NCBI GenBank assembly: GCA_963675745.2
Contig: CAXXWX010000012.1
Location: 18,969-82,968, forward strand
DNA: 64,000 nucleotides
Source: Phycisphaerae bacterium
Lineage (GTDB): Bacteria > Planctomycetota > Phycisphaerae > UBA1845 > Fen-1342
Direction: 5' to 3'
The notes under the pieces were generated by a model. The model made no database searches, was not told where the DNA came from, and saw only the letters and a list, made by a program, of their open reading frames with translations. Position 1 is the stretch's first letter, and every line of letters starts with the position of its first letter. Shown here piece by piece: positions 14,878 to 34,074 of the stretch. A program made the position numbers and the translations under genes.

Positions 14878-16329
14878 TCACCTGCGGGCACCGTTGCCCC
14901 GAACGGATTGCCCCCGGCGCAAGCGGCGGAACGCCTCGGTGACGAGCTTGCGCGTGTGCCGGTGGTCCACGATCGGGCGGGGATACTCGATGCCTTTCGA
15001 AGGTCGCTCGGGGAGTTGATGGAGCTGGTCGGCGGTCAATCCCGCCAGCTCGGGGACAAACCGTCGGGTGAAGTCACCCTCCGGGTCGTAGCGGCGGCTC
15101 TGGCTGGAGGGGTTGAACACGCGGAAGTAGGGTGCCGCGTCGGTGCCGGTCGAGGCCGACCATTGCCAGCCGCCGTTGTTGCTGGCGAAATCGCCGTCCA
15201 CCAGGTGCCGCATGAAGTGCCGTTCGCCCAAGCGCCAGTCGATGAACAGATCCTTGGTAAGGAACATCGCGGCGATCATCCGCAGCCGGTTGTGCATCCA
15301 ACCGGTCTGGGCCAGTTGCCGCATCCCGGCATCCACAATCGGGTACCCGGTCCGTCCCGCGCACCAGGCGGCGAAGTGCTCGTCGTCGTAACGCCACGGC
15401 AGACCGTCCGTTTCCGTTTTGAAGGGCCGGCCCATGCACACGCGGGGAAAGCCGATCAGTACGTGCCGGTAGAACTCGCGCCAAGCCAGCTCGCTGATCC
15501 AGGTTGTCATGCCCTGCTGGCCCGAGTCGAGCCGGCCGTGGTTGGCGTCGAGGGCTGCGCGCAGGCATTGTCTGGGCGACAACACACCGGCGGCCAGGTA
15601 GGGCGAGAGTGTGCTGGTGCCGTCAACACCCGGATAATCGCGGGCCACGTGATAGTCGCCGATTCTCCGCGAGACGAAGGCCGTGAGTCGCTTGCGGGCC
15701 ACCGCCTCGCCTGCCGGCCACAGGTCGGCACGACGCTGACCGGTGAACCCCCTGAGTCTGGCTGGAACGGCGTCGGGTTTGATCCCGAGATCCTGTCGGC
15801 GGCGCGGCGTCGGCCGGAGTGGCGGTGTTCCTCCTTCGTTCAGGACCTCACACCACTTGCGTCTGAATGGCGTGAACACCGTGTACCAGCCGCCGGCCTT
15901 GGTGCGCAAGCTACCGACGTTAACAATGATCTGGTCGGTGAATGCGTGAACGCTCCGGCCGCACTTCTCAAACAAGGTTGTGGCCGCGCGGTCACGTTGC
16001 AGCTCGTTGACCTCATACTCCCTGTTGAAGTACAGGGCTTCGCAAGCGTGTCGTCTGGCGAGGTTGAGGAGCTTGCTCGGAACCTCGTCGAAACGATCGG
16101 CCCGGATGAGTCGGAGAGGGATGTTGAGTTCAGCAAGGGCCTTTGACAACGCGCTGACGCTGCGCAGCACGAAGTCCACCTTCATACAACCCCAGTCGTG
16201 ATCGGCCCACTGCGCGGGGCAGATCGCGAAGACGGCGATGACACCCTCATTCGCGGCCTTGCAGGCATGGTGCAGAGCCGTATTGTCCCGCACGCGCAAG
16301 TCAGATCGAAACCACATCAGGGCCCGCAT
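14878..16329 (-). CDS. phrB: deoxyribodipyrimidine photolyase (class I CPD type)
   Basis: WFRSDLRVRDN, GTSTLSPYL, ELAWREFY, TGYPIVDAGMRQL, GWMHNRLRM, NNGGWQW and FRVFNP motifs. Confidence 0.95.
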   Translation of the reverse strand: MRALMWFRSDLRVRDNTALHHACKAANEGVIAVFAICPAQWADHDWGCMKVDFVLRSVSALSKALAELNIPLRLIRADRFDEVPSKLLNLARRHACEALYFNREYEVNELQRDRAATTLFEKCGRSVHAFTDQIIVNVGSLRTKAGGWYTVFTPFRRKWCEVLNEGGTPPLRPTPRRRQDLGIKPDAVPARLRGFTGQRRADLWPAGEAVARKRLTAFVSRRIGDYHVARDYPGVDGTSTLSPYLAAGVLSPRQCLRAALDANHGRLDSGQQGMTTWISELAWREFYRHVLIGFPRVCMGRPFKTETDGLPWRYDDEHFAAWCAGRTGYPIVDAGMRQLAQTGWMHNRLRMIAAMFLTKDLFIDWRLGERHFMRHLVDGDFASNNGGWQWSASTGTDAAPYFRVFNPSSQSRRYDPEGDFTRRFVPELAGLTADQLHQLPERPSKGIEYPRPIVDHRHTRKLVTEAFRRLRRGQSVRGNGARR

Positions 16330-16461: not shown

Positions 16462-17781
16462 TTATTCAACCTCGGGCAGCGTCGCGCCGGTGGCGACGCC
16501 GAGAAGCCCGCAAACTGACAACAGCAGGATAATCCCCGCGGGCGTGATGATGATGCTGAGCGGGGCCAGCACCGCGGTCATGAGCAGGATGACGCCGATC
16601 ACCGTGTTGCTGACCGCCACGTAGTCGGTGCGGCGGTTGCCGCCGGCCATGTCCACGACGTATGTTTTGCGTCCGAGCCGCACACCGCTGTGGGCGATCC
16701 CCAACAGGAAGAACGCCGCGGGGTAGGTCCAGACGGAATCGCGCAGCGGAGAATCAAAGGTGGCAACCGCGGCGACCACCAGCCCGACGACGGCCGCCCA
16801 CGCCGACGCGACCAACAGCACGCGCCGGCTGGAAACGTCGGCCCAGATGCCCCAGAACGAGGCGCTGAGGCTCGCGGCCAGCGCGTTGGCCAGCACAAAC
16901 CAGCCGAGCGAGGCAAGGTCAAGTCCATGCCGCTGCTGAGCAAGCACCACGTAGTACGGAGCTGACAAGGCGGAACAGAGCAGCAGGGCGCGGGTAATGA
17001 CGAACCTGCGGAACTGGCGATCGGTTCGCAAGAGGTCCAGCCGTTTGAGCGCCTCGGAGAATGCGTTGCCGCCGCCTGCGGTTTCGCCGGCGAACTCCCT
17101 GATGTTGCCGTACACCAGCGCCGCCAGGAACCACAGGGCGGCCGCCGTGCTGAGCAGGGTGAAGTAGAACATCGGCGAGTCGGAGCCGGGCGCGCGCGTT
17201 CCCAGATAAAGTCCGAGCAGAATCGCCGCCAGTCCCGAGATGGTCGCCCCCAGTCCGCTGACCCGACCGCGGCGCGTCTTCGGGATTGTCTTGCCGAGCA
17301 CGTCTTTGGAGGCAACCGAGTTCAGCCCGCGCGAGAGACTGAACACCGCCAGCAGCAGGACGATTAGCCAACCCGCCGTCGCCCCCGTCGAGACGGCCGC
17401 GACCACGCCGATGCCCAGTACAGCCAGCGCCTGGAGCACGCTGCCGATTACCCAGACCGTCTTTCGCTTGGGCATGCGGCGGACAAAGCTGGCGATAAAC
17501 AGTTGAGGGACCAGTGACCCGGATTCTCGAAGGGGCACCAGGAATGCAACCAGCGCGCTCGGCGCTCCGACAAAGCCCAGCAGCCAGGTCAGCACGGTTT
17601 TGGGGTTCGCCAGATGATCTCCCAGGTTGCTCAACGTCTGGCAGATGGCGATGAGATAGAAGTTGCGCGGTACGTACCGGCAAGCGTCCTCCGAGATATC
17701 CGTGCAGACCCGGGCGTCTTCCTCACTGGCAATCGCCTCGTAGGTCCGATCACGCCGGCTTGGTCCAGTTGCTAGTTCCAT
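16462..17781 (-). CDS. MFS transporter
   Basis: About 12 hydrophobic segments; KDVLGKTIPKTRRG and RLGRKTYVVDMA motifs. Confidence 0.85.
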   Translation of the reverse strand: MELATGPSRRDRTYEAIASEEDARVCTDISEDACRYVPRNFYLIAICQTLSNLGDHLANPKTVLTWLLGFVGAPSALVAFLVPLRESGSLVPQLFIASFVRRMPKRKTVWVIGSVLQALAVLGIGVVAAVSTGATAGWLIVLLLAVFSLSRGLNSVASKDVLGKTIPKTRRGRVSGLGATISGLAAILLGLYLGTRAPGSDSPMFYFTLLSTAAALWFLAALVYGNIREFAGETAGGGNAFSEALKRLDLLRTDRQFRRFVITRALLLCSALSAPYYVVLAQQRHGLDLASLGWFVLANALAASLSASFWGIWADVSSRRVLLVASAWAAVVGLVVAAVATFDSPLRDSVWTYPAAFFLLGIAHSGVRLGRKTYVVDMAGGNRRTDYVAVSNTVIGVILLMTAVLAPLSIIITPAGIILLLSVCGLLGVATGATLPEVE

Positions 17782-19288
17782 CGATCATCTCGCAGAGTGA
17801 CAACCAGCCGACTTTTCGGCAGCGCGGCGAATTCCCTCTGAGCATGCCTTCGAACACAAGACCGTGCATCGGCATCACGGCGTACCAATACGCCAAACCC
17901 ATCAGCCCCCGCGGCTTGAAGCGCGCCGTTTGCGTCAGCCTGCACGCTTCGGTGTCACGCTCATCAGGGCATATCTCGAAACTTAGCAGCGCCTCGCCGG
18001 GCAGTTTCATCTCGGCCCGTAGTTCGAGGCGCCGACCGGGCTCAACTCCGGTCACGCGCCAGAAATCCAGCGCCTCGCCGTACCAGAGTCGTTCAGAGTC
18101 GCGCCGGCCGCGGCGCAGGCCCGGGCCGCCAACGAGTCGGTCGATCCAGCCGCGCAGGCGCCACAACCAATCGGCCGCGTAGTAGCCGTGATCGCCTCCG
18201 ATTCTGGACACGGTGCAGTATACGTCCTCCGGTCGCGCATTCACGCCGGTTGAGCGACGGTCGACAAAGACCGTACCGCCCGACCAGTCGGGATCGCCGG
18301 ACATCGGTCCCGCGTCGGACCACGCCGTCTCGATGTGGTGGGCGCGCGTATTGCCCAGAGCGGCGTCGATAGCTTCGCGGATCGTCAGCAGGCGTTGCGG
18401 CATCAGACGAACCGCCGAATCATCCCGGCAGACCACGCGATTGCGCAGACCCTCTGCCAGCGGGCGCGCGATCCGATGGCTGATCGGCGTCACCAGGTGG
18501 ATCCAGAGCGAGCTTAGTCGCGGCGTCAGGACCGGCACCGGGATAATGACGCGCCGGCGCACGCCGAGTGCCTGGGCCATGACCTGCATGATCTCGCGGT
18601 AGGTCATCACTTCGGCGCCGCCGATGTCAATGGTGTTGCCCACGGTGTCCGGGCAATTCAGGCAGGCAACCAGGTAGTGCAGGACATTCTGAATCGCGAT
18701 CGGTTGTGACGCGGTGCTGACCCAGCGGGGCGTTATCATCACGGGCAGCCGTTCCACCAGGTATCGCAGAATTTCGAACGAGGCCGAACCGGAGCCGATG
18801 ATCATCGCCGCGCGCAAGACCGTTACCGGCACCGGCCCCGACGCCAGCGCGTTTTCGACCTCGCGCCGAGAGGCAAGATGTTCGCTGAGTCCCTGACCAG
18901 TCTCGCCCAGCCCGCCGAGGTAGATGATGCGATCCAGGCGCGCTTTCGCCGCAGCCTCAGCGAATGTCGTCGCCAACCTGCGGTCGTGTTCACGATAATT
19001 ATGGCCGGCGGCCATCATCGAGTGGACCAGGTAGTACGCCGCACCGCATCCTGTCATAGCCTCGGCGAGCGCTTGCCGATCGCTGACATCGCAGCGCACT
19101 ACCTCGACGTTGGTGTCGCCAATCCACTCGCGCGAATCCAGCTTACGCGGCTCGCGTGCCAGGCAACGGACGCGATGCCCGGCCGCCAGCAGCCGCGCGA
19201 CAAGTCGTCCGCCGATGTAGCCGCTGGCACCGGTCACAAGGACCGGCCTCTGTCCACGATCGGCGTTCGCATCGGCGTTTGTCATCAT
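17750..19288 (-). CDS. YbjT-like atypical SDR / NAD(P)-binding protein with DUF2867 C-terminal domain
   Basis: VLVTGASGYIGG, YYLVHSM, HLASRREVE, GSGSASFE, LDFWRV, AEMKLPG. A probable 1-nt insertion near 17833 gives a corrected end GMLRGIRRAAEKSAGCHSAR* with the stop at 17785. Confidence 0.88.
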   Translation of the reverse strand: MMTNADANADRGQRPVLVTGASGYIGGRLVARLLAAGHRVRCLAREPRKLDSREWIGDTNVEVVRCDVSDRQALAEAMTGCGAAYYLVHSMMAAGHNYREHDRRLATTFAEAAAKARLDRIIYLGGLGETGQGLSEHLASRREVENALASGPVPVTVLRAAMIIGSGSASFEILRYLVERLPVMITPRWVSTASQPIAIQNVLHYLVACLNCPDTVGNTIDIGGAEVMTYREIMQVMAQALGVRRRVIIPVPVLTPRLSSLWIHLVTPISHRIARPLAEGLRNRVVCRDDSAVRLMPQRLLTIREAIDAALGNTRAHHIETAWSDAGPMSGDPDWSGGTVFVDRRSTGVNARPEDVYCTVSRIGGDHGYYAADWLWRLRGWIDRLVGGPGLRRGRRDSERLWYGEALDFWRVTGVEPGRRLELRAEMKLPGEALLSFEICPDERDTEACRLTQTARFKPRGLMGLAYWYAVMPMHGLVFEGMLRGNSPRCRKVGWLSLCEMIDGTSNWTKPA

Positions 19289-19417
19289 GCGTTTGATCCC
19301 GGCCGCCTGGGCGGGACAGCGTGTCAGAAGAGCCAAGTTCCCTGCTGGTCTGATTGCGCGGCAGCCATTGCTCGTCTCGACGCATCCATGCCGCGTTTGA
19401 AGGCTATTCCAAGGGCA

Positions 19418-20341
19418 TCAAGCGGATGCGGGGGGGCTGTTTGTGATCACTACGTTCCGGCGCCGGCCGCCAAAAAGCCGGTTCTGCAGCGCCGTCCATA
19501 GCGCGGAACTCCCGAGGTTGTCGACAAACTCGAGCATCAGGATGCTCACGTCGTCGTGCTGTAGCCGGGGGTCGTTCGAGTGCTGGCGCAGCTCTTCAAT
19601 GATCGCCGGCACCAGGACCTGGGGCGCACGATCGGGCGTGGCCTTCAGGATATCGGCGAGACGCCTTCGACCGAACAACTCGCCAGTCTTGTCGGGGACC
19701 TCCAGGACTCCATCCGTGATTATGAGTATCCGATCGCCGAATGCCGCGCGCCGCACGCATCGCGTGTAGCGTGTTCGCGGGTCGGCGGCCAGGACGATAT
19801 CGAACAGTCCTTTCCGCGGGACAGGTTCGAGTAGTGACCAGCATCGCGCCGCCGCCTCGTAGTACCAGGCCGGCTCATGTCCGGCGTAGCTGATCGACAT
19901 TCGTCGAGTGGGCGGGAAGTACGTGAGCGCGGCGGCCGTCGTGAATGACCCGTTGTCGAGTTTCGACAGGCGGAGATTCAATTGTCGCAGGACCTTGCGT
20001 TCGTCCATGCGGTTTACGGAGCGCCGCAGCAGATCGTGCATGGTCTGGCTGATGACGGCCACGCTCTCGCCGTGTCCGGTGACATCTGCAAGGCACGCCC
20101 GTGAGATCAGGCCCGAGCCACAGACGGAGAGATAGTGTACGTCGCCGCCCCGCGCACCCTCACAGGACTGCGAGAACAGCACGCCGCGCAGGCCGGGCAG
20201 TTCGATCGGGCCGTCGAAAGTCTGGTTGCCGCCCCAGACTTCGTTGCAGACGAGCCCCACCGATTCACCACCCATTTGCAAGGGGCCGCCGACTGGCACA
20301 GTCGCTTTACCTGGGTCGGGAGCTTCGCTCATTTGAGCCAT
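19418..20341 (-). CDS. stand-alone PP2C/SpoIIE-family Ser/Thr phosphatase
   Basis: GGDVHY, LADVTGHG, YAGHEP, ITDGVLE and DDVSIL metal-binding motifs; no N-terminal sensor domain. Confidence 0.88.
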   Translation of the reverse strand: MAQMSEAPDPGKATVPVGGPLQMGGESVGLVCNEVWGGNQTFDGPIELPGLRGVLFSQSCEGARGGDVHYLSVCGSGLISRACLADVTGHGESVAVISQTMHDLLRRSVNRMDERKVLRQLNLRLSKLDNGSFTTAAALTYFPPTRRMSISYAGHEPAWYYEAAARCWSLLEPVPRKGLFDIVLAADPRTRYTRCVRRAAFGDRILIITDGVLEVPDKTGELFGRRRLADILKATPDRAPQVLVPAIIEELRQHSNDPRLQHDDVSILMLEFVDNLGSSALWTALQNRLFGGRRRNVVITNSPPASA

Positions 20342-20563: not shown

Positions 20564-20590
20564 TTCGCCCGGGCGATGACTCTGGATTCA
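20564..20590 (-). promoter_or_regulatory. putative SigK-type ECF promoter, copy 1 (drives PP2C-SDR-MFS-phrB)
   Basis: Minus strand reads TGAATCC-agagtcatcgcccgg(15)-GCGAA with an A/T tract upstream; same motif and spacing as 24641 and 27508. Confidence 0.72.
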
Positions 20591-20619
20591 GATTTTTCGC
20601 AAAACGCGGGGCAATGTGC

Positions 20620-21061
20620 TGCGTCAGGAGCCATCCGCACGCGCTCCGGCCAGGTCATGCTCTATCAACTGACCGATGCCGGGCGGACCGTCTGCGCCGA
20701 CGTCGGTATTCACGCCGGCCCCGCCCCGCGCGTCAGCCTCGAACATCGCTATTGGGCGCGCCGGGCGGCCGACATGTTCGACCACCGGGGTTTCGAAGTC
20801 ACGCACGAGTATGCCGTCCAGGGCAACGGCACCGTGGATGTGCTAGCAGAGCGCCCGGGCGAGCGGATCGCGATCGAGATCGAAACTGGAAAGTCCGATA
20901 TCTCCGCCAACCTCGCCAAGCTCCGCAACGCGGGCTTTGACCGGGTCGTCTTGCTGGCTACGTCTCCATCCGCGGTTACCGCCTGCCAGCGCGCGATCGC
21001 ACAAGTGCCGGCCGACCACGCACTTCCGGTCGAGCAACTGACTTGGCTGGACGTTTCTTGA
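20620..21061 (+). pseudogene. 5'-truncated remnant with winged-helix-like plus PD-(D/E)xK-like C-terminus, mobile-element type
   Basis: Only the last ~145 codons of ORF 20135-21061 look protein-like (SLEHRYW, VDVLAE..IAIEIETGKSD); the upstream part overlaps the PP2C gene and promoter. Left boundary approximate. Confidence 0.55.
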
Positions 21062-21203
21062 AGGGCCTGCAAGTCCGCTTTCCATTGTGTCAGGTGGCCG
21101 ATTTTGCTAACTTCCGGATTGGAGACCGGTTACGCCCAGGTGACCTTCCAGAAGAAGGGGGCGACCTTTTCTCGTTCGTGCTGATGTCCGGAGGGATGAC
21201 GCG

Positions 21204-23999
21204 ATGCAGAAGTCGCGCAAGTTGTGGCCGTGGGTGTGGGTCGCCGCGTTGGGCGGCGTTGTTTGTGCTGTGGCGTGGGCCGGGAATATTCGCCATGACG
21301 ACATCGACGGCGATCCCGATAACGATCCGGACTTCAATGAGTTCTACAACTTGGCCGCCGATCGTGACTTCGATGCTGCCGGGGCCGTTGTGTCCGAGAC
21401 CGACGGCCAGGCGACACTCCTCGCTGGGTCTGGCACGCTCATTCAGCCGGAATGGGTGCTGACCGCAGCCCACGTGGCAAACGGGCTGAGCCTGAATACC
21501 GCATTCTCGCTTGGGGGGACAACATTCCAAGATGGAATGTTGTACGAGGTCTCCGGCTATATTCTGCCCCCGACTTATGATCCCAGCGGCGCTGGGTGCC
21601 CCGTGGGCCCAAGCGGCCCCACCACCGGCTGCCACGGAGATGACATTGCGCTCCTCCGACTGCGGCAGGTTGTGAGTGGGGTCGCTCCGGCGACCCTTCC
21701 CACATGGCCTGCAACTGGGCTGCTAGACTACACCGTGACGATCACCGGCCTCGGCGACCGCGGAACGGGTTTGAATCCCAACACCTTGGTCAGCGGAACG
21801 AGGATCGCGGGCACGAACACAATTGACGCCCGCGGTAGCGATGTTGGCGGTATCGATCCCAACGTGGCTGGCTGGTCATCGAACATCTTTGTAGTCGACT
21901 TTGACGACCCCAACGGCGTTTTTCCGAACCGTTGTGGCTCGTCAACGCCGGTGAGCTACGAGTACCTGTCGGCGAGGGGTGACAGTGGCGGTGGCTGGTA
22001 CTGCCGCTACTACGACAACGGCTGGAAACTGGAACTGGTTGCTGTGACGTCTTTCGAGTACGGCCCCCAGGGATCAGTTCCTCACGGCGGCTACGGCTGT
22101 CTCGCCTTGGGCACGTCAGTGCCAGCTCACAGGGATTCGTGGATCAGTCCACTGCTCGGGGAGGATCTCGAGTGGAAGTGGGTCGGCGGCTCTGGATCCG
22201 ATTACGATGATCGGCTGAACTGGAACGTCTCCCTTGCTGATCCCAACTTGGGGACATTCGTGGTCCTACGACTGCCGGGCGAACCAGACAGCATCGTCTT
22301 CGACCGGCCCGAAGCGTACACGGTCTCGCTGCCAAGCGCTGCCATGGTTAGGGAGATGAGCATTGAGGGTGGCAGTGACGTCACGCTCGATGGCACGTTC
22401 GGCTACACGATCACTGACTTGGCAGCCCTGTCCAACGGCGGCGTTCTTCATCTCGATGCAGGAGCGACGATCAATGCGGGCGAGCTGCGCGTCGGCGAGT
22501 ATGGGGTCGGCACTTTGAGCCAGAGCGGTGGAATCGTCACGATTGAGAATAGCCTCCACATCGGCGTCAATTGCGGAGCCGACGGGACGTACAACCTTGC
22601 CGGCGGAACCCTGGTCGCTGACACGATCAACATCGCATTCAACGGCCAAGGAGAGCTGAACTGGACAGACGGGACAATTCTGCCCTTCACTCCCGGCGGC
22701 ACCGTCACGGTCAACGTCTGGTCACCCAACGGCAGCGTCAACATCGCCGATGGACTGACCTTCGACGGCGTCGTGAACGAGCTGTCGGCGGAAGATGTCG
22801 ATAGTGACGGCGTGATCGACGATTGCGACGAGTGCCCGGATACGCTTCCAGGCGTCGCAGTCGACGAGGTCGGATGCCCGCCGCCCACCCCCGGCGATGC
22901 GGACCAGGACGGTGACATCGACCTGCGCGATATCCAGCAGTTCCAGCAGTGCTTCGATACCGATCCATCGGGCGGGTGCCCGGATGCCGTCGATGTCGAC
23001 GGCGACGGTGACGTGGATCTGGATGATTGGGACGAGCTGGCCCCGATTATCGAAGGTCCGGGCAGCCAAGCGCCGCCTGCCAATATGGTCTTGGTCCCTG
23101 GTGGTTCATTCCTGATGGGCGATAGCTTCGACGACGAGGGCCACGATGATGAGCTGCCGGTCCATGCGGTCTATCTGAGCCCGTACTACATCGGCACTTG
23201 CGAGGTGACCAATCAGCAATACTGTGACGGGCTGAATTGGGCCTACGGTCAAGGGCTGATCCAGAATCCGGATCTTCACGGCGGTGTGGTGTATAAGATC
23301 GGGGGAACGAGCACGTGCTATTGCGACACGACGAGTTCGTCTTCGTACAGCCGGGTCACATGGAACGACAGCAGCTTCGGTGTGGTTGCGGGCGAGGAGA
23401 ACCACCCTGTGGTGATGGTGACCTGGTACGGTGCGGCGGCGTACTGCAACTGGCGCAGCAGCATGGAAGACCGCACGTCGTGCTACGACACGAGCACATG
23501 GACGTGTAACTTCGGCGCGACCGGCTACCGTTTGTCGACTGAGGCCGAGTGGGAGAAGGCAGCCCGGGGCGGACTAAGCGGGCAGCGCTTCCCGTGGGGC
23601 GACATCATCAACCATAGCCGCGCCAACTACAGAGCCTGTGGCGCCTGTGCCTACCCGTATGACGATAGCCCGTACACGAGTTACACGTTTCATCCCGATT
23701 TCGACGACGGCGAGTATCCGTACACCGGCCCGGTGGGGTATTTCCCCCCGAATGGCTACGGCGTGTACGACGCGTCCGGCAACATCTGGGAGTGGTGTAA
23801 TGACTGGTTCTTGAGTACATACTACGCGGGCTCGCCGAGTTCGAACCCGACCGGTCCCACGGGTGGGTCACGCCGCATTCTGCGCGGCGGCAGTTGGATC
23901 GACGTCGCAAGGGAATGCCGCGTGGCAGACCGCGGTAATTACCCGCCCGACGAACGCTACAACTACCTCGGGTTTCGCTGCGTGGTGGGTAATCCGTGA
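21204..23999 (+). CDS. secreted multidomain protein: trypsin-like serine protease + beta-rich repeats + Ca-binding/dockerin-like repeats + FGE-sulfatase (SUMF1) domain
   Basis: Catalytic triad VLTAAHV / DIALLRL / GDSGGG; DSDGVIDDCDECP and GDADQDGDIDLRD repeats; FGE motifs FLMG, EVTNQQY, RLSTEAEWEKAARGG, GNIWEW, RGGSW, GFRC. Confidence 0.85.
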   Translation: MQKSRKLWPWVWVAALGGVVCAVAWAGNIRHDDIDGDPDNDPDFNEFYNLAADRDFDAAGAVVSETDGQATLLAGSGTLIQPEWVLTAAHVANGLSLNTAFSLGGTTFQDGMLYEVSGYILPPTYDPSGAGCPVGPSGPTTGCHGDDIALLRLRQVVSGVAPATLPTWPATGLLDYTVTITGLGDRGTGLNPNTLVSGTRIAGTNTIDARGSDVGGIDPNVAGWSSNIFVVDFDDPNGVFPNRCGSSTPVSYEYLSARGDSGGGWYCRYYDNGWKLELVAVTSFEYGPQGSVPHGGYGCLALGTSVPAHRDSWISPLLGEDLEWKWVGGSGSDYDDRLNWNVSLADPNLGTFVVLRLPGEPDSIVFDRPEAYTVSLPSAAMVREMSIEGGSDVTLDGTFGYTITDLAALSNGGVLHLDAGATINAGELRVGEYGVGTLSQSGGIVTIENSLHIGVNCGADGTYNLAGGTLVADTINIAFNGQGELNWTDGTILPFTPGGTVTVNVWSPNGSVNIADGLTFDGVVNELSAEDVDSDGVIDDCDECPDTLPGVAVDEVGCPPPTPGDADQDGDIDLRDIQQFQQCFDTDPSGGCPDAVDVDGDGDVDLDDWDELAPIIEGPGSQAPPANMVLVPGGSFLMGDSFDDEGHDDELPVHAVYLSPYYIGTCEVTNQQYCDGLNWAYGQGLIQNPDLHGGVVYKIGGTSTCYCDTTSSSSYSRVTWNDSSFGVVAGEENHPVVMVTWYGAAAYCNWRSSMEDRTSCYDTSTWTCNFGATGYRLSTEAEWEKAARGGLSGQRFPWGDIINHSRANYRACGACAYPYDDSPYTSYTFHPDFDDGEYPYTGPVGYFPPNGYGVYDASGNIWEWCNDWFLSTYYAGSPSSNPTGPTGGSRRILRGGSWIDVARECRVADRGNYPPDERYNYLGFRCVVGNP

Positions 24000-24043
24000 A
24001 TTCACTGGGATGAATCGCCTTATGAAGTCGGGGCGGAGGTACA

Positions 24044-24478
24044 TCATCGACGATAGGAGCCCCTCCCGTAGCCAGCCCGTGCTGGGGCATAGCTCCCGTA
24101 ACGTCGTCCAGCGTGGACGATCTTCTCAGCCACGTGTCGGGGCCACGATCTGCCTTGAAGGTCTCGCGGATACAAAAACAGCGCGCGGGCCCCGTTGTTA
24201 CTGTACGCCTGCTGCTTATGGCGTACGCCGTCCATGTACGTCGGTCGGTCGGGCATGCCGGTGTACTCGACGATCAGATTGCCGTATGTCGGCAACGTGA
24301 AGTCTGGGTGCCACACGCGAAACCTCCCACGATCATAGATCACCGTAGGCATTTCGTAGAAGAAGGGAATTCCGTACCGGCCCAGCAGCCGTCCGACCTG
24401 CGCCTCTCCGCGGGAGCGGTATGGCGGCTCGTCCGGTCCCAGGCGGTCCTCAAGCCGCACCTTGGGTGGATAGTCCAC
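24044..24478 (-). CDS. hypothetical protein, PD-(D/E)xK nuclease-like, mobile-element associated
   Basis: SRGEAQVGRLL, FFYE and WHPDFTLP..IVEYTG pattern resemble the restriction-endonuclease-like fold. Confidence 0.55.
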   Translation of the reverse strand: MDYPPKVRLEDRLGPDEPPYRSRGEAQVGRLLGRYGIPFFYEMPTVIYDRGRFRVWHPDFTLPTYGNLIVEYTGMPDRPTYMDGVRHKQQAYSNNGARALFLYPRDLQGRSWPRHVAEKIVHAGRRYGSYAPARAGYGRGSYRR

Positions 24479-24640
24479 GCACGGGTCACCCAGTCCATCT
24501 GACGTATGGCCCTGGCGAGATCACTTCTCCTCGCTCCCGCCAAGTGTCTTTGCGAGATCCTCGGCGATCTTCCCGAGCTTCCGCTCTGTCTCTGCTGCCG
24601 CCCTGTTCAGCCGCTCCAGGTGCTGGTTATGTCCAGTTTT

Positions 24641-24667
24641 TGAATCCAATCGACGCTGCGCGACGAA
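24641..24667 (+). promoter_or_regulatory. putative SigK-type ECF promoter, copy 2 (drives lipocalin-sigma-antisigma-B12 protein)
   Basis: TGAATCC-aatcgacgctgcgcg(15)-ACGAA, preceded by a T tract, 43 bp upstream of the lipocalin ATG. Confidence 0.78.
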
Positions 24668-24710
24668 CTCCCCCACAGGTCCAGATTACTTCTGGCATTA
24701 AGGAGACATC

Positions 24711-25274
24711 ATGTGCAGGAATACACGCCGCTGTGCCACGTTACTGTCGGTTCCGCTGCTAGCGCTCGTAACCGGGGGTTGCCCCGCCATAGATGAGGCG
24801 TTTTACCCACGACTTGAAACCGCTTCCGACGTGGATATCGAGCGTTACGCGGGCAAGTGGTACGAGATCGCCAGATACCCGGCCATTTTCCAGGAGGGTT
24901 GCGTCGATGTAACCGCCGAGTACACCGTGCTCGCGGACGGGGCTGTTCGTGTGGTGAATACATGCGGCTCAACCGACGGGAGTTCACGCGACATCGTCGG
25001 TACGGCGAGAGTGATCGACCCAACCACCAACGCGAAGCTGAGCGTTTCGTTCTTCGGACCGCTGTTTGGCGCTCCGTATTGGATTATTGAACTCGACGAC
25101 GACTATCAGTATGCCGTCGTTGGCAACCCGAGCCGGGAGTTCCTCTGGATTCTCAGCCGCACGCCAGCGCTCGACGACACAACGCTCTCGGGGATCCTCG
25201 GGCGCCTGCCGGATTACGGCTATGACCCGGACAGGCTCATCTGGACAGTCCAGAGCGAAGCCATGACTCCGTAG
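24711..25274 (+). CDS. blc: lipocalin family lipoprotein (Blc-like)
   Basis: Lipobox GGC; DIERYAGKWYEIARYP, TAEY, YWIIELDDDYQYAVVG and LWILSR motifs; RBS AAGGAG. Confidence 0.9.
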   Translation: MCRNTRRCATLLSVPLLALVTGGCPAIDEAFYPRLETASDVDIERYAGKWYEIARYPAIFQEGCVDVTAEYTVLADGAVRVVNTCGSTDGSSRDIVGTARVIDPTTNAKLSVSFFGPLFGAPYWIIELDDDYQYAVVGNPSREFLWILSRTPALDDTTLSGILGRLPDYGYDPDRLIWTVQSEAMTP

Positions 25275-25483
25275 CTCGGGCGCTCTGACGACCATCTGCT
25301 CCTTGTCGCCCCGGTGGCAGTGGCGACTCAGCGGTATGGCAAGCGCGTAGCGGGCGCCCGCAGGAGGGGCAGGCAGCCAATCATCCGCTACAATCACCGG
25401 TGCCGGCACCGTTGCCGGCCCTGGACAATCGGTTCTCGACCCGCTTCGGAATCCGGCGCTTACCCTGGGTTGGAACGCGCGCA

Positions 25484-26053
25484 ATGCCGCAAACCTTGCT
25501 CGAACGAGTCGCCTCCGGTGACGTGGCTGCCGTGCAACAGTGCATCGATCGCTACGGCGGGCTGGTCTGGTCGCTGGCGCGGCGGTTGGTGCCCCGCCGG
25601 GCTGACGCGGAAGACGCGGTCCAGGAAGTGTTCATCGCGTTGTGGAAGAGCGCGGAACGGTTCGACCCCGCGGTTGCCGAAGAGACGACATTCGTGGCGA
25701 TGATCGCTCGTCGCCGACTCATCGATCGGCAACGGCGTCTTGCGCGGCGCATCGAAGGTCGGCAGTCGGTGCCGATCGAGGATGTCCAGGTCGCGTCGAC
25801 GGAGTCCGATCAAGACGGTGTGGATGTGTGCGACGAGGCGGCCCGCGCCGCGCAAGCGGTGACTCAGCTACGGCCCGAGCAACAGAAAGTGCTGCGCCTG
25901 GCGGTGTATGATGGTTGGTCGCACCAGCGGATCGCCGACCACTTGCAGATGCCCCTGGGTACCGTGAAGACGCACGTCAGGAGAGGTCTGGTGCGGGTGC
26001 GCGAGCTGCTGACGAGCTCCGGCGCCACGGCCGAACGGGAGGCGACATCATGA
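25484..26053 (+). CDS. ECF RNA polymerase sigma factor (SigK-like)
   Basis: Region 2 DAEDAVQEVFIALWKSAERFDP and IARRRLIDR; region 4 SHQRIADHLQMPLGTVKTHVRRGL. Confidence 0.92.
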   Translation: MPQTLLERVASGDVAAVQQCIDRYGGLVWSLARRLVPRRADAEDAVQEVFIALWKSAERFDPAVAEETTFVAMIARRRLIDRQRRLARRIEGRQSVPIEDVQVASTESDQDGVDVCDEAARAAQAVTQLRPEQQKVLRLAVYDGWSHQRIADHLQMPLGTVKTHVRRGLVRVRELLTSSGATAEREATS

Positions 26054-26295
26054 AGCGCCACCCCGGCCTGCCGCGTGACGAGCACATGCTACAACTCATG
26101 GCGGATCGTGCCACAGAGGGATTATCGCGCTGCGATGCGCTGGAGTTGGACAGGTACATGGCGCAGAACCCCGACGCCGATCGCGACGCGCTCGATTACG
26201 CCGCCGCGGCGGTCTGTCTGGCATTCGGCGCCGGGCGCGGCGAAGCCCTGCCGGATCGTGTACGCGACAGGGTGCTTTCGGCGGCCGCGCCGTAG
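26050..26295 (+). CDS. 81-aa anti-sigma-like protein (N-terminal cytoplasmic part only; no TM or periplasmic domain)
   Basis: ATGA overlap with the sigma stop; helical sequence MKRH..LMADRATEGLS..ELD..EALPDRVRDRVL resembling RskA-type N-terminal domains; stops where the linker/TM would begin. Confidence 0.65.
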   Translation: MKRHPGLPRDEHMLQLMADRATEGLSRCDALELDRYMAQNPDADRDALDYAAAAVCLAFGAGRGEALPDRVRDRVLSAAAP

Positions 26296-26342
26296 TGCCG
26301 GCGGGTTTGCCTCCGCTGTGTTAAAGATGGGTAGGGTGTCCT

Positions 26343-27401
26343 GTGAACGAAACCGCAAAGCAGCTCAGCAACACGATCGAGTCGGTCTCGAAGGCCCTGG
26401 CCGAGTGGACGATAAACCGCCACATCGAGTCAGACCCCGCTCTACCCGAGCGCTACGGCACGACCTGGCGCGCGGACTGGACAGCCAACTTGCAGTCGCG
26501 CCTCGCTTATCTGGCCCAAGCCGTCGCAGTCAGAAGACCCGAGCTCTTTACGCAGATGATGGCCTGGACGGCGGAAGCCGCTCTGGCGCGCAGAGCGAAG
26601 CCTGACGATCTCCTGAACAGCCTGGAGCACATGCGCGACGTGCTCGCCCAGGAACTGCCGCCGCCCGTCGCGAACACCGCGTCGGAGTATGTGGATCAGG
26701 CGCTTACCCGCCTGCGCAGCGCGGAAATTGAGTCCGCGGTGGCACTGAACCCGAGCGAGCCACACGGCAAGCTGTCGCTGCGCTACCTGGAAGCCGCGTT
26801 GGCCGGCGACCGCGGCAAAGCCTGTGGCCTCATTATCGAACAGGCTCAAGCCGGCGTATCGGTGGCCGAGCTCTACGATCGGGTCTTGCTGCCGGCGCTG
26901 TCAGAAGTTGGCCGCATGTGGCACCGCGGCGAGATTTCCGTTGCTGACGAGCATTTCACCACCGCGACGACCCAGGTGCTGCTTGGCGAGCTCCGGTCCT
27001 ATTTCCCGCAGCCCGAACCGCGCTCGGCAACCGTGGTGGCCGCCGCCGTGAGCGGGGATTTTCATGACAACGGTCTGCGTATGGCGGCGGATTGCCTCGA
27101 GATGGACGGCTGGCGCATCCTGTACCTCGGCGCGAACATGCCGGCTGACGACATCGTCGAGTTTCTCGATCAACACGCCGCCGACCTGCTGGCGCTATCG
27201 GTGAGCACATGTCTTCTCGTGTGCCGAGCCGGCGAGCTCATCGAGGTCGTGCGTGCCAATCACTCCAGCGACAAACTGAGGATCATCGTTGGCGGGGCGC
27301 CATTCGACCTGATTCCCGATCTGTGGGAAGAACTTGGGGCGGACGGTTGCGCTCACAACACCACGCAGGCCGTCGAACTGGCGAACAAACTCATTCCGTA
27401 A
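26343..27401 (+). CDS. cobalamin-binding photoreceptor-like protein (globin-like N-domain + B12-binding_2 + B12-binding), no HTH
   Basis: CarH-type W-x9-EH (WHRGEISVADEH), base-off DxHxxG (DFHDNG), YLGANMP, LALS and IIVGGAP motifs; helical N-terminal ~125 aa. Confidence 0.85.
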   Translation: MNETAKQLSNTIESVSKALAEWTINRHIESDPALPERYGTTWRADWTANLQSRLAYLAQAVAVRRPELFTQMMAWTAEAALARRAKPDDLLNSLEHMRDVLAQELPPPVANTASEYVDQALTRLRSAEIESAVALNPSEPHGKLSLRYLEAALAGDRGKACGLIIEQAQAGVSVAELYDRVLLPALSEVGRMWHRGEISVADEHFTTATTQVLLGELRSYFPQPEPRSATVVAAAVSGDFHDNGLRMAADCLEMDGWRILYLGANMPADDIVEFLDQHAADLLALSVSTCLLVCRAGELIEVVRANHSSDKLRIIVGGAPFDLIPDLWEELGADGCAHNTTQAVELANKLIP

Positions 27402-27507
27402 CGCGCCCCGCGGCGCGCCGGTAACGCACGCTCCACTTGACGCGGAGAAACTGCCGCCCCGCGCGGCGGTTGGCTGCGGTGTTGCCCGCAGTTTTTCTCC
27501 CAACTCC

Positions 27508-27534
27508 TGAATCCATCCGGCCCATCCGTGCGAA
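27508..27534 (+). promoter_or_regulatory. putative SigK-type ECF promoter, copy 3 (drives fasciclin-DUF378)
   Basis: TGAATCC-atccggcccatccgt(15)-GCGAA with a T tract upstream, ~96 bp before the fasciclin ATG. Confidence 0.78.
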
Positions 27535-27630: not shown

Positions 27631-28560
27631 ATGAAAGCCAAGAGATTTCTGAATCGAACCATGCTCGCCACGGCAGCCACGATCCTGATCGCGACGAGTT
27701 CCTACGCCCAGTGCAGCGCCGGCGCGAAGTCCGCAGAAAGCCAACATGACCTTGTCGACACGGCGGTTAACGCCGGCCAGTTCAAGACGCTTGTCGCCGC
27801 CGTCAAGGCCGCCGGGCTGGTGGATGTCCTCAAGAGCGATGGGCCTTTCACTGTTTTCGCTCCGACTGACGAGGCCTTCGCCAGACTGCCGGACGGCACG
27901 CTCGAAAGCCTGCTCAAGCCGGAGAACAAGGACAAGCTGGCCGCGATTCTGACCTATCACGTCGCACCGGGGAAACTCAGCGCGAGTGACGTCACGCGGA
28001 CGAGCGGAGCGGTCTCCGCCAACGGGCAATGGCTCGGATTCAAGTCGAGCGACGGTAAGGTCATGGTGGACAGCGCCACAGTGGTCGCGGCGGACATCAA
28101 GTGCGCAAACGGTGTGATTCACGTGATTGACCGGGTCGTGTTGCCCGAGCAGCAGAACATTGTGCAGGTCGCGGCCGGAGCCAAGACTTTCAACACGCTG
28201 CTGAAGGCCGCGACGAGCGCGGGTCTGGCCGGAGCCCTCCAGTCGGATGGACCATTCACCGTGTTTGCGCCCACCGACGAGGCCTTCGCCAAGCTGCCGG
28301 CTGGAACGCTGGAGAATCTGCTCAAGCCCGAGAACAAGCAGCAGCTCGCGACGATCATCAAGTACCACGTGATTCCGGGCCGCGTTTACTCGCCGGCCGC
28401 GATGAAGGCCAATGACGCCGGCACGCTGGCCGACCAGAACGTACGTTTCACTCGTAAGGACAACGCGCTGTACGTCGACAAGGCCCGCATCGTCGCGACG
28501 GACATCGATGCATCCAACGGCGTGATCCACGTGATCAATGCGGTCATGATCCCCGGCTAA
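27631..28560 (+). CDS. fasciclin (FAS1) domain protein with two tandem domains
   Basis: Signal peptide; two copies each of [14 protein letters not shown] and NGVIHVI. Confidence 0.95.
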
Positions 28561-28617: not shown

Positions 28618-28842
28618 ATGAAGACGATGGATATACTCGCCGCCGTCCTGTTGGTTGTCGGCGGTCTGAACTGGGGTCTCTGGGGTGCGTTTGAGTTCGA
28701 TCTGGTGGCGGCTATCTTCGGTGGCAACACCGCCGTCCTGAGCAAGCTTGTCTATGTTGTCGTTGGCCTGGCGGCCGCCTACCAGGCGTTTGCACTCAAG
28801 GCCATCCAGCGGCGTTGGATCTGCGCTCCCGTCACCGCCTGA
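28618..28842 (+). CDS. DUF378 small membrane protein
   Basis: LLVVGGLNWGL..FDLVAAIFG..VYVVVGLAA; RBS AAGGAG. Confidence 0.9.
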   Translation: MKTMDILAAVLLVVGGLNWGLWGAFEFDLVAAIFGGNTAVLSKLVYVVVGLAAAYQAFALKAIQRRWICAPVTA

Positions 28843-29078: not shown

Positions 29079-29813
29079 ATGAAACACTCACTCGTATCGA
29101 TAGCATCGGTCTCGGTCCTGATCCTGGCGTTTGCGGCATCGGTTGCGCCAGCAACGCCGGCGGGCGGTGGGAAGTGTGAGCAGATGATTTTCAGCTTTGA
29201 TAGTCCGCAAGATGTGGCGCCCTGGGTGGCTGTCAACGATAATGTGATGGGCGGTGTTTCGGATGGCCGTGTTCGGATGACCGACCATGCGACGCTGGAA
29301 TTCTTCGGCTCAATATCACTGGAGAACAACGGCGGTTTTGCTTCGATCCGTTCCCGCCGTTCTGATGTGGATCTGTCGAGCTTCGATGGCCTGCTAATCC
29401 GCGTGCGCGGCGATGGACAGCGTTACGACTTGAACCTGAGAACGAACGTGCGAATCATGGCCGGCTCATACCGGGCCAAGTTCGAAACGAATGTGGATGC
29501 ATGGCAGGAAGTCTATCTCCCATTTGCTGATTTCGAGCCGACGTCCTTTGGCCGCGTGCGCAGCGACCTGCCCGCACTCGATCCCAGCAAGATCCGCTCG
29601 TTTGGCTTCTTGATTGCGGACAAACAGGCTGGGTCATTCTCGCTTGAAGTCGACTGGATAAAAGCGGTGGTCTCCCCCGACAAACTGGACGCCCAAAGCA
29701 GCGCCGCGCTCCAGCCGGGCGGAGAATCGGCAGTGCGAAACTGGATCAAGTCAGCCATTTCTTACGGCGCGCCGCTGTACAACGCCGCTAGTGAAGTAGC
29801 TTCCGAATTGTAA
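29079..29813 (+). CDS. CIA30 (NDUFAF1-like) family protein, secreted, C-terminal extension apparently truncated
   Basis: WVAVNDNVMGGVS, SLENNGGFASIR, VRGDG and LIADKQAG motifs; signal peptide. Confidence 0.88.
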   Translation: MKHSLVSIASVSVLILAFAASVAPATPAGGGKCEQMIFSFDSPQDVAPWVAVNDNVMGGVSDGRVRMTDHATLEFFGSISLENNGGFASIRSRRSDVDLSSFDGLLIRVRGDGQRYDLNLRTNVRIMAGSYRAKFETNVDAWQEVYLPFADFEPTSFGRVRSDLPALDPSKIRSFGFLIADKQAGSFSLEVDWIKAVVSPDKLDAQSSAALQPGGESAVRNWIKSAISYGAPLYNAASEVASEL

Positions 29814-29848: not shown

Positions 29849-33048
<3,200 letters not shown>

Positions 33049-33219
33049 TGAGCGGCCGTACCGATATCAAGCTCGCTCTATGCACGACGCCACGAACCGC
33101 GCGGCGAGGAGAAGACCTCGCGCCGTGAAAGACGAGCCTCACAGTGGGGCGCCCCTTCCGGGCGCCCGCTGTGATCGATCGTGCGATGCACTTGCCTGTC
33201 TCAAAAGCGGAGATTCCAA

Positions 33220-34074
33220 ATGTCACCGTCGTTCGTAAAAGTGTGGGTGCCTGCCGCTCTAGCCGCAGGTTGTATTCTCTTCGCCGGCTGTTCGATTCCG
33301 AGGCCGTGGCCGGAAAGCCCGCTATATGAAACGCCGACTAACGACCCGAACTGGGTGGCGCCCGCGAACAAACAGGAAGCCATGGAGGCCATGGCGGGGC
33401 ACTATGCCCACTACGACATCGTCGCGTACGACGGCGAGACGGCCAACGGCCCGCTCGCCACGTTTATCGTCTCGTATGGCTTTACCGACCTGGTCATCGA
33501 AGACGAAGAGCTGGTTGCGTACGATAGCTTCTGCCGTGCCGAATACATCGCCAACCAGAACTTCGACACGATCTTCTCCGATGCCGCCACACAGGCCATT
33601 CAGCCGGTTGGTGCGATCGTCGACGTTTATGAGGAAGATGGGGCGTGGAAGCTATGGCGGCCGCCGACACCGACGCTCAACGGTATTGCCGGTGACCCGA
33701 ATGTGCCGCTGTCGATGGATCGCAACGACCCCCTGATCAGCGACGACGATAACGATGGAAAGCCCGGCGTGACCGTCGTCGTGAAGCTGTTCGGGTTCAT
33801 TGAGGGGGAGATCTATATCGCCCGGCGCGAGATATTCCAGAACGCCATGACGCTCTATTCCGATGGCAGCCTGCGGGGCAGCGTCATCGACGACTCGGAG
33901 CAGCTCGTGATCGGGGCGTCGCTCGCGATTCTGGACACACCCAACAACCCGCCGCAGCGGCGCGATCCCGGCCTGAATCCGATCATTCTGATACCGGTCG
34001 CGGATGACATTGACACGTGCGAAGAACTCATGGCGCTTCGAGATTTGCTGTTTCCCGCTGAGCCGGGATTCTGA
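33220..34074 (+). CDS. hypothetical lipoprotein
   Basis: Lipobox LFAGC; acidic DDDNDGKPG motif. Confidence 0.65.
   Translation: MSPSFVKVWVPAALAAGCILFAGCSIPRPWPESPLYETPTNDPNWVAPANKQEAMEAMAGHYAHYDIVAYDGETANGPLATFIVSYGFTDLVIEDEELVAYDSFCRAEYIANQNFDTIFSDAATQAIQPVGAIVDVYEEDGAWKLWRPPTPTLNGIAGDPNVPLSMDRNDPLISDDDNDGKPGVTVVVKLFGFIEGEIYIARREIFQNAMTLYSDGSLRGSVIDDSEQLVIGASLAILDTPNNPPQRRDPGLNPIILIPVADDIDTCEELMALRDLLFPAEPGF

Follow-up and report, generated by a model that had tools for sequence, protein, structure and literature searches.

We analyzed a 64,000-nucleotide (nt) window from the genome of an uncultured Phycisphaerae bacterium (contig CAXXWX010000012.1 of assembly GCA_963675745.2; all coordinates are those of the window). 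The window carries a gene for a sigma factor of the extracytoplasmic function (ECF) type, here called the 25484 sigma, amid genes headed by three copies of one promoter-like motif. The genome, G000, comprises 5.2 Mb and is 91% complete. Downstream of the sigma gene lie open reading frames (ORFs) for a truncated anti-sigma factor and a photocobilin-like protein, which are the unusual parts of this locus. The features on which the analysis turns are as follows:

20564..20590, minus strand: promoter motif P1, 222 nt before a PP2C phosphatase gene, heading a leftward unit of phosphatase, DUF2867 short-chain dehydrogenase/reductase (SDR), major facilitator superfamily (MFS) transporter and photolyase genes
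24641..24667, plus strand: promoter motif P2, 43 nt before a lipocalin gene, heading the lipocalin, sigma, anti-sigma domain and photocobilin-like genes
25484..26053, plus strand: ECF sigma factor of 189 amino acids (aa), SigK/LitS-like and likely of group ECF19, with Pfam sigma r2 and r4_2 domains
26050..26295, plus strand: soluble RskA-like anti-sigma N-terminal domain of 81 aa, overlapping the sigma stop codon by 4 nt and aligning with full-length orthologues
26343..27401, plus strand: photocobilin-like protein of 352 aa, with a phycobiliprotein-type globin, a B12-binding_2 and a B12-binding domain and without a helix-turn-helix (HTH)
27508..27534, plus strand: promoter motif P3, 96 nt before a fasciclin gene, heading fasciclin, DUF378 and CIA30 genes and probably the genes through katG

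A preliminary description of this DNA, made from the sequence alone, had noted three identical copies of TGAATCC-N15-RCGAA, each at the head of an operon and behind an A/T tract, and had taken them as the regulon of the 25484 sigma. It had likened them to the promoters of mycobacterial SigK, which read ATCC-N15-CCGAA. The three sites are indeed exact matches in the window, as compared to a mean of 0.03 in 100 dinucleotide shuffles, none of which contained three. All of them lie outside the called genes, and each is directed into a gene at the distance listed above, in keeping with the claim that they stand at gene heads. Two ORFs overlapping P1 (20135-21061 and 20350-20658) were rejected as coding there, their codon bias being weak. 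The remark that other TGAATCC copies lack the -10 element was borne out as well, with 14 of the 17 heptamers in the window (7 expected) having no RCGAA at N15. The A/T tract is present but short, the longest run in the 20 nt upstream of P1, P2 and P3 measuring 6, 4 and 5 nt, respectively, against 2-4 nt at the other 14 heptamers. When the entire genome was searched, the exact motif was not enriched at its own spacer, which gave four matches, relative to the other spacers from 8 to 24, which gave 0-5 (five at spacer 16). Moreover, genome-wide counts of the exact motif fail to separate sigma-bearing from sigma-less genomes and were therefore not used as support. However, three of the four matches at spacer 15 fall within 7 kb, an arrangement expected at about 8e-7 genome-wide at the background rate, a figure that applies to a motif picked post hoc. 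The signal thus resides in this clustering and in conservation in orthologous loci, not in the genome-wide count. Further candidate regulon members were discarded: the fourth exact match at C1:263353 and a site at C26:234390 lie inside ORFs, a site at C5:30812 belongs to a short tandem repeat, and the flanks of all of them score poorly. The repeat, which covers the heptamer region (C5:30790-30838), creates a near-match 47 nt before an ORF and was judged unrelated.

Conservation was assessed in a set of 65 regions from the loci of other genomes, picked by gene position and not by motif. These comprised the 300 nt before sigma orthologues, fasciclin genes and unlinked B12 genes and, for linked B12 genes, the 320 nt that follow them. 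Six loci were dropped, namely three duplicates, the locus of G000 itself and two distant ones, as were four regions shorter than 150 nt, and 61 regions were used, with G000 excluded. Enumeration of two-block words, done blind, returned GAATC-N17-CGAA as the top word, occurring in 33 of the 61 regions, whereas the best word in each of 20 shuffles reached 4-6. The form ATCC-N16-CG[AT]A was found on the forward strand of 38 regions and on the reverse strand of seven. At spacers 15-17, the motif was present in 12 of 17 sigma regions, that is, within 300 nt of the sigma gene itself in these close orthologous loci, in 11 of 16 fasciclin regions, in 13 of 15 regions following B12 genes and upstream of 8 of 13 unlinked photocobilin genes. 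These counts are not independent, as the regions stem from kin genomes and some divergent genes share a region. The 40 orthologous sites yield the consensus TG[A/C]ATCCR-N15-CGAA, in which the base after ATCC is a purine in 39 sites. The base before CGAA varies (G 23, T 8, A 6, C 3), such that CGAA is the conserved part of the RCGAA block originally described and the R is not.

A matrix built from these 40 sites, and hence untrained on G000, places P2 (31.1), P3 (27.3) and P1 (26.3) at ranks 1-3 in 5.2 Mb, followed by a site inside an ORF at 21.4. Upon removal of the close relatives, the three ranks are kept with a narrower margin (P2 30.8, P1 23.9, P3 23.1; next site 22.1). The position of P2 is matched in L078 and L080, and across loci the motif heads sigma, fasciclin, DUF378, DUF2867, lipocalin and photocobilin genes. 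It also lies upstream of phosphatase homologues (L146, L159) and 120 nt upstream of the DUF2867 SDR orthologue in L026. Three genomes, G056, G514 and G517 (96, 93 and 86% complete), carry clusters of the same target genes with no sigma orthologue and no motif in 20 kb. By contrast, G483 has the sigma and carries the motif upstream of its phosphatase gene. The absence of the motif from the target clusters of sigma-less genomes indicates that it follows the sigma rather than the targets. None of 17 more distant sigma loci holds a motif inside the sigma coding sequence. Footprinting, matrix ranks and sigma-less controls thus support the earlier proposal that the motif is the cognate promoter of the 25484 sigma. 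Autoregulation would be indirect here, since P2 heads the unit containing the sigma gene but is separated from it by the lipocalin gene and a 209-nt gap.

In G514 and G517, an HTH+B12 regulator occupies the target cluster in place of the sigma, which suggests that this gene set may be under B12-type light control by either route. The two HTH_17+B12 regulators (L163:11801-12700 in G514, L164:8413-9306 in G517) are thus likely to provide this gene set with another light switch based on B12.

The 25484 sigma consists of sigma-2 and sigma-4 domains only and belongs to the ECF family (TIGR02937, 94.6 bits, cut-off 42.9). Its best NCBIfam matches, PRK12519 (131 bits) and SigK PRK09646 (111 bits), both remain below their cut-offs, and no ECF paralogue in G000 comes near the sigma itself, the closest reaching 52 bits compared to 394. 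Assignment to SigK proper was rejected, considering the PRK09646 cut-off of 226 bits and the lack of a sigma-4 cysteine pair: cysteines occur at positions 20 and 116 only, and no pair is conserved in 19 aligned orthologues. The closest families of the sigma are SigK-like, but the sigma is not SigK proper. Four further loci (L166, L167, L168, L169) harbor a sigma orthologue without the motif and without an adjoining anti-sigma gene; in three of them, the next ORF encodes what we take to be a tricorn-type protease. ECF18 was also rejected, being a Proteobacteria-only group with two cysteines that includes the photolyase-driving LitS of Burkholderia (available supplement of PMC7826278), while the B12-protein homologues and neighbouring genomes found here are named Phycisphaerae or Planctomycetota. 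According to the same supplement, ECF19 is RskA-associated, has an ATC/CG promoter pattern, draws 0.62% of its members from Planctomycetes and includes LitS of Streptomyces. The RskA-like anti-sigma factor is found at position +1 and typically (~80%) has one membrane helix. The motif described here shows the ECF19 promoter pattern (ATC at -35, CG or TG at -10), and the sigma is likely a member of this group. Judged by what it is predicted to target, it stands nearer to the LitS sigmas, which are induced by light, than to SigK proper. The consensus given for Streptomyces LitS is GCATCCR-N15-CVGAAD (PMC11519972), and SigK-type fasciclin genes of M. kansasii are described as light-induced (PMC9861118).

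For the 352-aa protein, the best matches are photocobilins and CarH-type domains. Its N-terminal domain hits the globin of SasPcob by profile (E 1.4e-7), and its model (pLDDT 94.5) matches the allophycocyanin fold with a TM score of 0.83. Together with its two domains B12-binding_2 and B12-binding, which bear the W-x9-EH and E/DxH motifs, this is the domain composition of a photocobilin. W193, E203, H204, H241 and G244 are invariant in all 73 aligned sequences (73 of the 120 listed homologues), and H194, following W193, is conserved in at least 90%. A CarH/LitR-type repressor was dismissed, given that the protein lacks an HTH, has a globin as N-terminal domain and reaches 66 bits against the CarH cut-off of 400. 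The protein is predicted to be a B12-dependent light sensor. G000 also encodes a cobalamin adenosyltransferase. In one family (L068, L069, L070, L071, L076), the spacer of the site preceding the photocobilin gene departs from its usual length by one base in either direction. In this family, the gene can start ~10 nt after CGAA, so the photocobilin mRNA would be near-leaderless.

Full-length orthologues match the 81-aa ORF over their N-terminal parts, both of the two that were scanned having RskA_C, while the ORF itself contains neither a membrane helix nor an RskA_C domain. An assembly error does not account for its length, because the anti-sigma factor is also 81 aa long in three close relatives (L078, L080, L081). 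Full-length RskA-like proteins occur in L018, L019, L020, L021, L024, L026 and L061, whereas G000 retains the N-terminal domain only. Other lineages have stubs of 85-93 aa or, in L017, a form without the membrane helix. Given that close relatives keep the same length at 70-81% identity, the domain is likely under selection. A profile search returned no solved relative, and a Pfam match to T3SS_HrpK1 (17.5 bits, cut-off 30.9) was discarded as chance. Truncated RskA has been described in 9% of cysteine-less SigK loci, the N-terminal part being sufficient for inhibition (PMC7509140).

We related the photocobilin to the sigma factor in a survey of 401 genomes of the class, in which photocobilins were matched at E 1e-40 and the sigma line was drawn at 200 bits after viewing the scores. 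Photocobilins were found in 28 genomes and the sigma in 50; 24 genomes have both, meaning that 24 of the 28 photocobilin genomes carry the sigma compared to 50 of 401 overall. Outside the class, 34 of the sampled genomes gave a match. Of the 27 loci examined, 11 have the sigma gene at a distance of up to 1.5 kb from the photocobilin gene, with shuffled gene orders, and 15 contain the motif. Every shortened anti-sigma factor (11, among them that of the window and the membrane-less form in L017, and 4 more) stands beside or near a photocobilin gene, most of these loci having been retrieved by a photocobilin query. No RskA was found anywhere in five of five genomes with sigma and photocobilin (positive control 5/5), which had been picked for having the sigma without a downstream RskA. 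In three of the five, ~10 nt separate the motif from the start of the photocobilin gene. The photocobilin gene of G679 takes the usual anti-sigma position, with an overlap of 4 nt with the sigma stop codon, and that of G123 follows the sigma gene by 43 nt. Complex prediction, which covered the sigma-photocobilin pair only, gave a score of 0.44 versus 0.01 for the best control and lends weak support to a direct contact (the mark applied is attained by 116 of 157 complexes of solved structure as against 2 of 215 mismatched pairs, and, at 0.60 or below, by 18 of the 157 and both mismatched pairs). Contact agreement between runs was at least 97% and partner pLDDT at least 88.

The remaining genes of the three units are:

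14878..16329, minus strand: deoxyribodipyrimidine photolyase (PRK10674, 527 bits, cut-off 506)
16462..17781, minus strand: MFS transporter (Pfam)
17750..19336, minus strand: NAD-binding SDR with DUF2867, its true start probably ~90 nt inside the listed ORF
19418..20341, minus strand: stand-alone SpoIIE/PP2C phosphatase, the first gene after P1
24711..25274, plus strand: lipocalin, a Blc-like lipoprotein (Pfam/NCBIfam-type domain scans)
27631..28560, plus strand: protein with two fasciclin domains (Pfam)
28618..28842, plus strand: DUF378 small membrane protein (Pfam)
29079..29813, plus strand: CIA30-domain protein (Pfam)
29849..30694, plus strand: protein without a Pfam family that recurs when orthologous clusters are compared
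30730..33048, plus strand: catalase-peroxidase KatG, 35 nt after the preceding gene and thus probably co-transcribed from P3
33181..34074, plus strand: protein without a Pfam family that recurs, with 71-88% identity, when orthologous clusters are compared

Unit limits were drawn from gene spacing and from co-occurrence elsewhere. Scans for sigma-70 promoters (3 versus 3.9 in shuffles) and terminators (13 versus 14.6) remained at shuffle level and therefore could not bound the units. No riboswitch was detected by Rfam over 12000-36000 apart from one chance-level match (E 0.35).

With a probability of roughly 0.75, we propose that the motif is a conserved, sigma-linked promoter, that the 25484 sigma reads it, and that the system answers to a light or photo-oxidative signal. 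The motif is conserved at the target heads and accompanies the sigma rather than the targets, as seen in the loci compared. Judging from this pattern, the 25484 sigma very probably reads TG[A/C]ATCCR-N15-CGAA, with starts a few nt after CGAA, and should raise its own transcription through P2. It would thereby drive transcription of three neighbouring units made up of light- and oxidation-stress genes. The inducing signal is probably light or photo-oxidative stress. Beyond these steps, the chances are close to even, though slightly short of it, that the sigma is bound by the photocobilin in the dark and set free upon illumination. In such a switch, the photocobilin bound to adenosylcobalamin (AdoB12) would retain the sigma in darkness, alone or with the 81-aa anti-sigma domain, light would break the cobalt-carbon (Co-C) bond and free the sigma, and new photocobilin made from P2 would restore the off state. 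More tentatively still, the photocobilin may have been recruited across Planctomycetota as a soluble, light-gated anti-sigma factor binding the sigma, while RskA shrank stepwise from the full-length protein via a helix-less form and a stub of 75-93 aa to complete loss, the photoreceptor then occupying the place of the anti-sigma gene.

Several observations weigh against these proposals. The -10 element differs from that of LitS by one base (CGAA versus CVGAA). Exact copies of the motif are scattered at 0-7 per genome, including genomes in which no close sigma was found, and relatives without a close sigma orthologue contain up to seven copies of TGAATCC-N16-CGAA. The claim that the three copies define the regulon holds with flank-aware scoring in the 91%-complete assembly but not with the core positions alone, by which two sites inside ORFs tie or beat P2. 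Among the 17 more distant sigma loci, the motif lies within 300 nt of the sigma in only four, with three more having it before an upstream fasciclin gene. The two closest relatives with long flanks, L078 and L080, show no P1 unit beside the sigma. As to the photocobilin, the sigma family does not require it, since 26 of the 50 sigma genomes show no match at E 1e-40. The compared genomes are kin, by which the co-occurrence counts are overstated, and the data had already been seen when the line was set at 200 bits and the five genomes lacking RskA were selected. In those five, a short anti-sigma domain could have been missed by a search that gave two weak matches only. Finally, no PF01126 heme oxygenase that might supply biliverdin was found in the 91%-complete G000.

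How far these points favour other explanations differs from case to case. That the motif is a chance pattern picked by eye post hoc has a negligible probability. Although spacer 15 is no richer than spacer 16 genome-wide (4 and 5 matches) and the heptamer itself is over-represented in the window, the motif was recovered blindly from other genomes, and a matrix made without G000 puts P1-P3 first. A genuine motif that serves some other sigma or regulator is very improbable. G000 contains 15 other weak ECF-like matches, exact copies persist in genomes without a close orthologue, and the motif directly precedes the sigma in few of the distant loci. However, it is missing from the target clusters of the three sigma-less genomes, travels with the sigma across classes and resembles, in its two blocks and their sequence, the motif reported for LitS, a related sigma. 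The role of the photocobilin leaves more room. The promoter and sigma might operate as described, with the photocobilin being only a co-regulated target or a B12/redox sensor, and the sigma being released otherwise, for example by proteolysis of the 81-aa anti-sigma domain or a switch involving the PP2C phosphatase. We consider such a passenger role unlikely, though it has to be taken seriously. It fits the many sigma genomes without a photocobilin match and the weak complex score. Moreover, the available text on truncated RskA, including an 81-aa form in Nocardia, mentions no photoreceptor (PMC7509140), and a Saccharothrix photocobilin has been linked by prediction to STAS and SpoIIE (PMC10979010), a SpoIIE protein heading the P1 unit here. 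It fits less well with the proximity of every shortened anti-sigma factor to a photocobilin gene, bearing in mind how most of these loci were retrieved, with the occupation of the anti-sigma slot by the photocobilin in G679 and G123, and with the invariance of the photoreceptor motifs W-x9-EH and D/ExH.

Another variant of the last step, which leaves the promoter, sigma and signal unchanged, makes the photocobilin an anti-anti-sigma factor whose light state would bind the 81-aa domain and thereby free the sigma. The maintained identity and length of the short domain in close relatives would suit this arrangement, as would the report (PMC10979010) that photocobilins of the stand-alone kind, when in their light state, work through contacts with other proteins. 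We nevertheless regard it as improbable, because the five genomes with sigma and photocobilin in which no RskA was found offer no target for an anti-anti-sigma factor, and the sigma-photocobilin complex itself scored above controls.

The proposed light-responsive sigma system shares features with several known ones. Streptomyces LitS/LitR (ECF19s4) has a near-identical -35 element and spacer and, in the published accounts available, an autoregulated ECF19-type sigma under light control via a B12 photoreceptor encoded by an adjoining gene. Unlike LitR, which is a MerR-type DNA-binding protein, the B12 protein of the window has no HTH and carries a globin. The -10 element of the window is one base shorter, and the targets are photolyase, lipocalin, fasciclin and catalase-peroxidase genes instead of carotenoid genes. 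Mycobacterial SigK-RskA (ECF19s2), with its mpt83-sigK-rskA cassette, resembles the locus in that an RskA-like protein is encoded at +1, a fasciclin gene is among the targets and the regulon is small and local, but differs in the sigma, by family score and cysteine pair, and in the anti-sigma factor. With neither membrane helix nor outer domain in the latter, intramembrane proteolysis cannot be the switch here. The LitS of Burkholderia multivorans (ECF18s6) is likewise a light-dependent sigma with a photolyase target and a related motif (ECF18: TGCATCTT / CGTA). The taxonomic restriction and the two sigma-4 cysteines of its group, as given in the supplement, do not apply here. The photocobilins SasPcob (8J2W) and AbPcob (8J2Y) and the photoglobins share the globin, the two B12 domains and the W-x9-EH and E/DxH motifs; in the window protein the globin is N-terminal, both orders being noted in PMC10979010. 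Partners named in the available parts of PMC8717448 and PMC10979010 are diguanylate cyclase, two-component, STAS, SpoIIE and HTH factors, with no ECF sigma among them. CarH/LitR-type HTH+B12 regulators, such as those in the target clusters of G514 and G517, have the same B12 photoreceptor fold, whereas the window protein lacks a DNA-binding domain and scores far below the CarH cut-off.

The promoter appears to be an additional SigK/LitS-type member, extending this motif to planctomycetes and mapping a compact regulon in an uncultured lineage, a useful but expected result. The wiring of sigma and photocobilin matters more, as the known B12 photoreceptors controlling such sigmas work as DNA-binding regulators. 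The function of stand-alone photocobilins is termed less clear in the paper that named them (PMC10979010), and the one described here comes with a putative partner and a promoter as its output, G679 and G123 providing natural versions of minimal size. In the literature searched, which left most subscription journals outside its coverage, no report of a sigma-photocobilin pairing was found. A photoreceptor acting as anti-sigma factor presents a testable chance. If true, it would be a light-gated anti-sigma factor and a compact optogenetic part, giving stand-alone photocobilins a defined target and yielding a two-gene optical switch with a known promoter.

Apart from the ECF promoter, a housekeeping candidate lies ~90-110 nt before the sigma start (25380-25395). 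In relatives (L058, L060, L061, L062, L019, L026), the element reads TTGCG-N17-[C/G]AT[G/C][C/T]T, whereas TACAAT is common to the window, L078 and L080. This element may be a housekeeping promoter for basal expression of sigma and anti-sigma factor. L078 and L080 have a GAATC relic where other relatives carry the ECF promoter.

In other genomes, the motif is further found ahead of a longer gene of the sigma-70 family (with spacer 15) and of catalase, DXP synthase and SOUL heme-binding-like genes (L128 and L134 in G234 and G159; L120 in G123; L122 in G316; L138 and L024), which hints that these genomes may have a sigma cascade and a broader regulon. In several relatives (L017, L028, L164), the module is adjoined by genes for a fatty-acid desaturase and flavin amine-oxidase-like proteins, which recall the lipid-modifying genes known in other singlet-oxygen regulons. 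The two proteins of no Pfam family (29849-30694 and 33181-34074) are candidate uncharacterised light-stress proteins.

The divergent sites P1 and P2 are separated by a 4-kb stretch (20642-24478), in which nuclease-like ORFs at 20642-21061 (plus strand) and 24044-24478 (minus strand), with weak Pfam matches only (E 0.05-0.09), flank a gene with trypsin, dockerin and FGE domains. No boundary repeat was found around the stretch. In relatives, such promoters stand back to back, 20-105 nt apart, and on this sole basis the stretch is likely an insertion.

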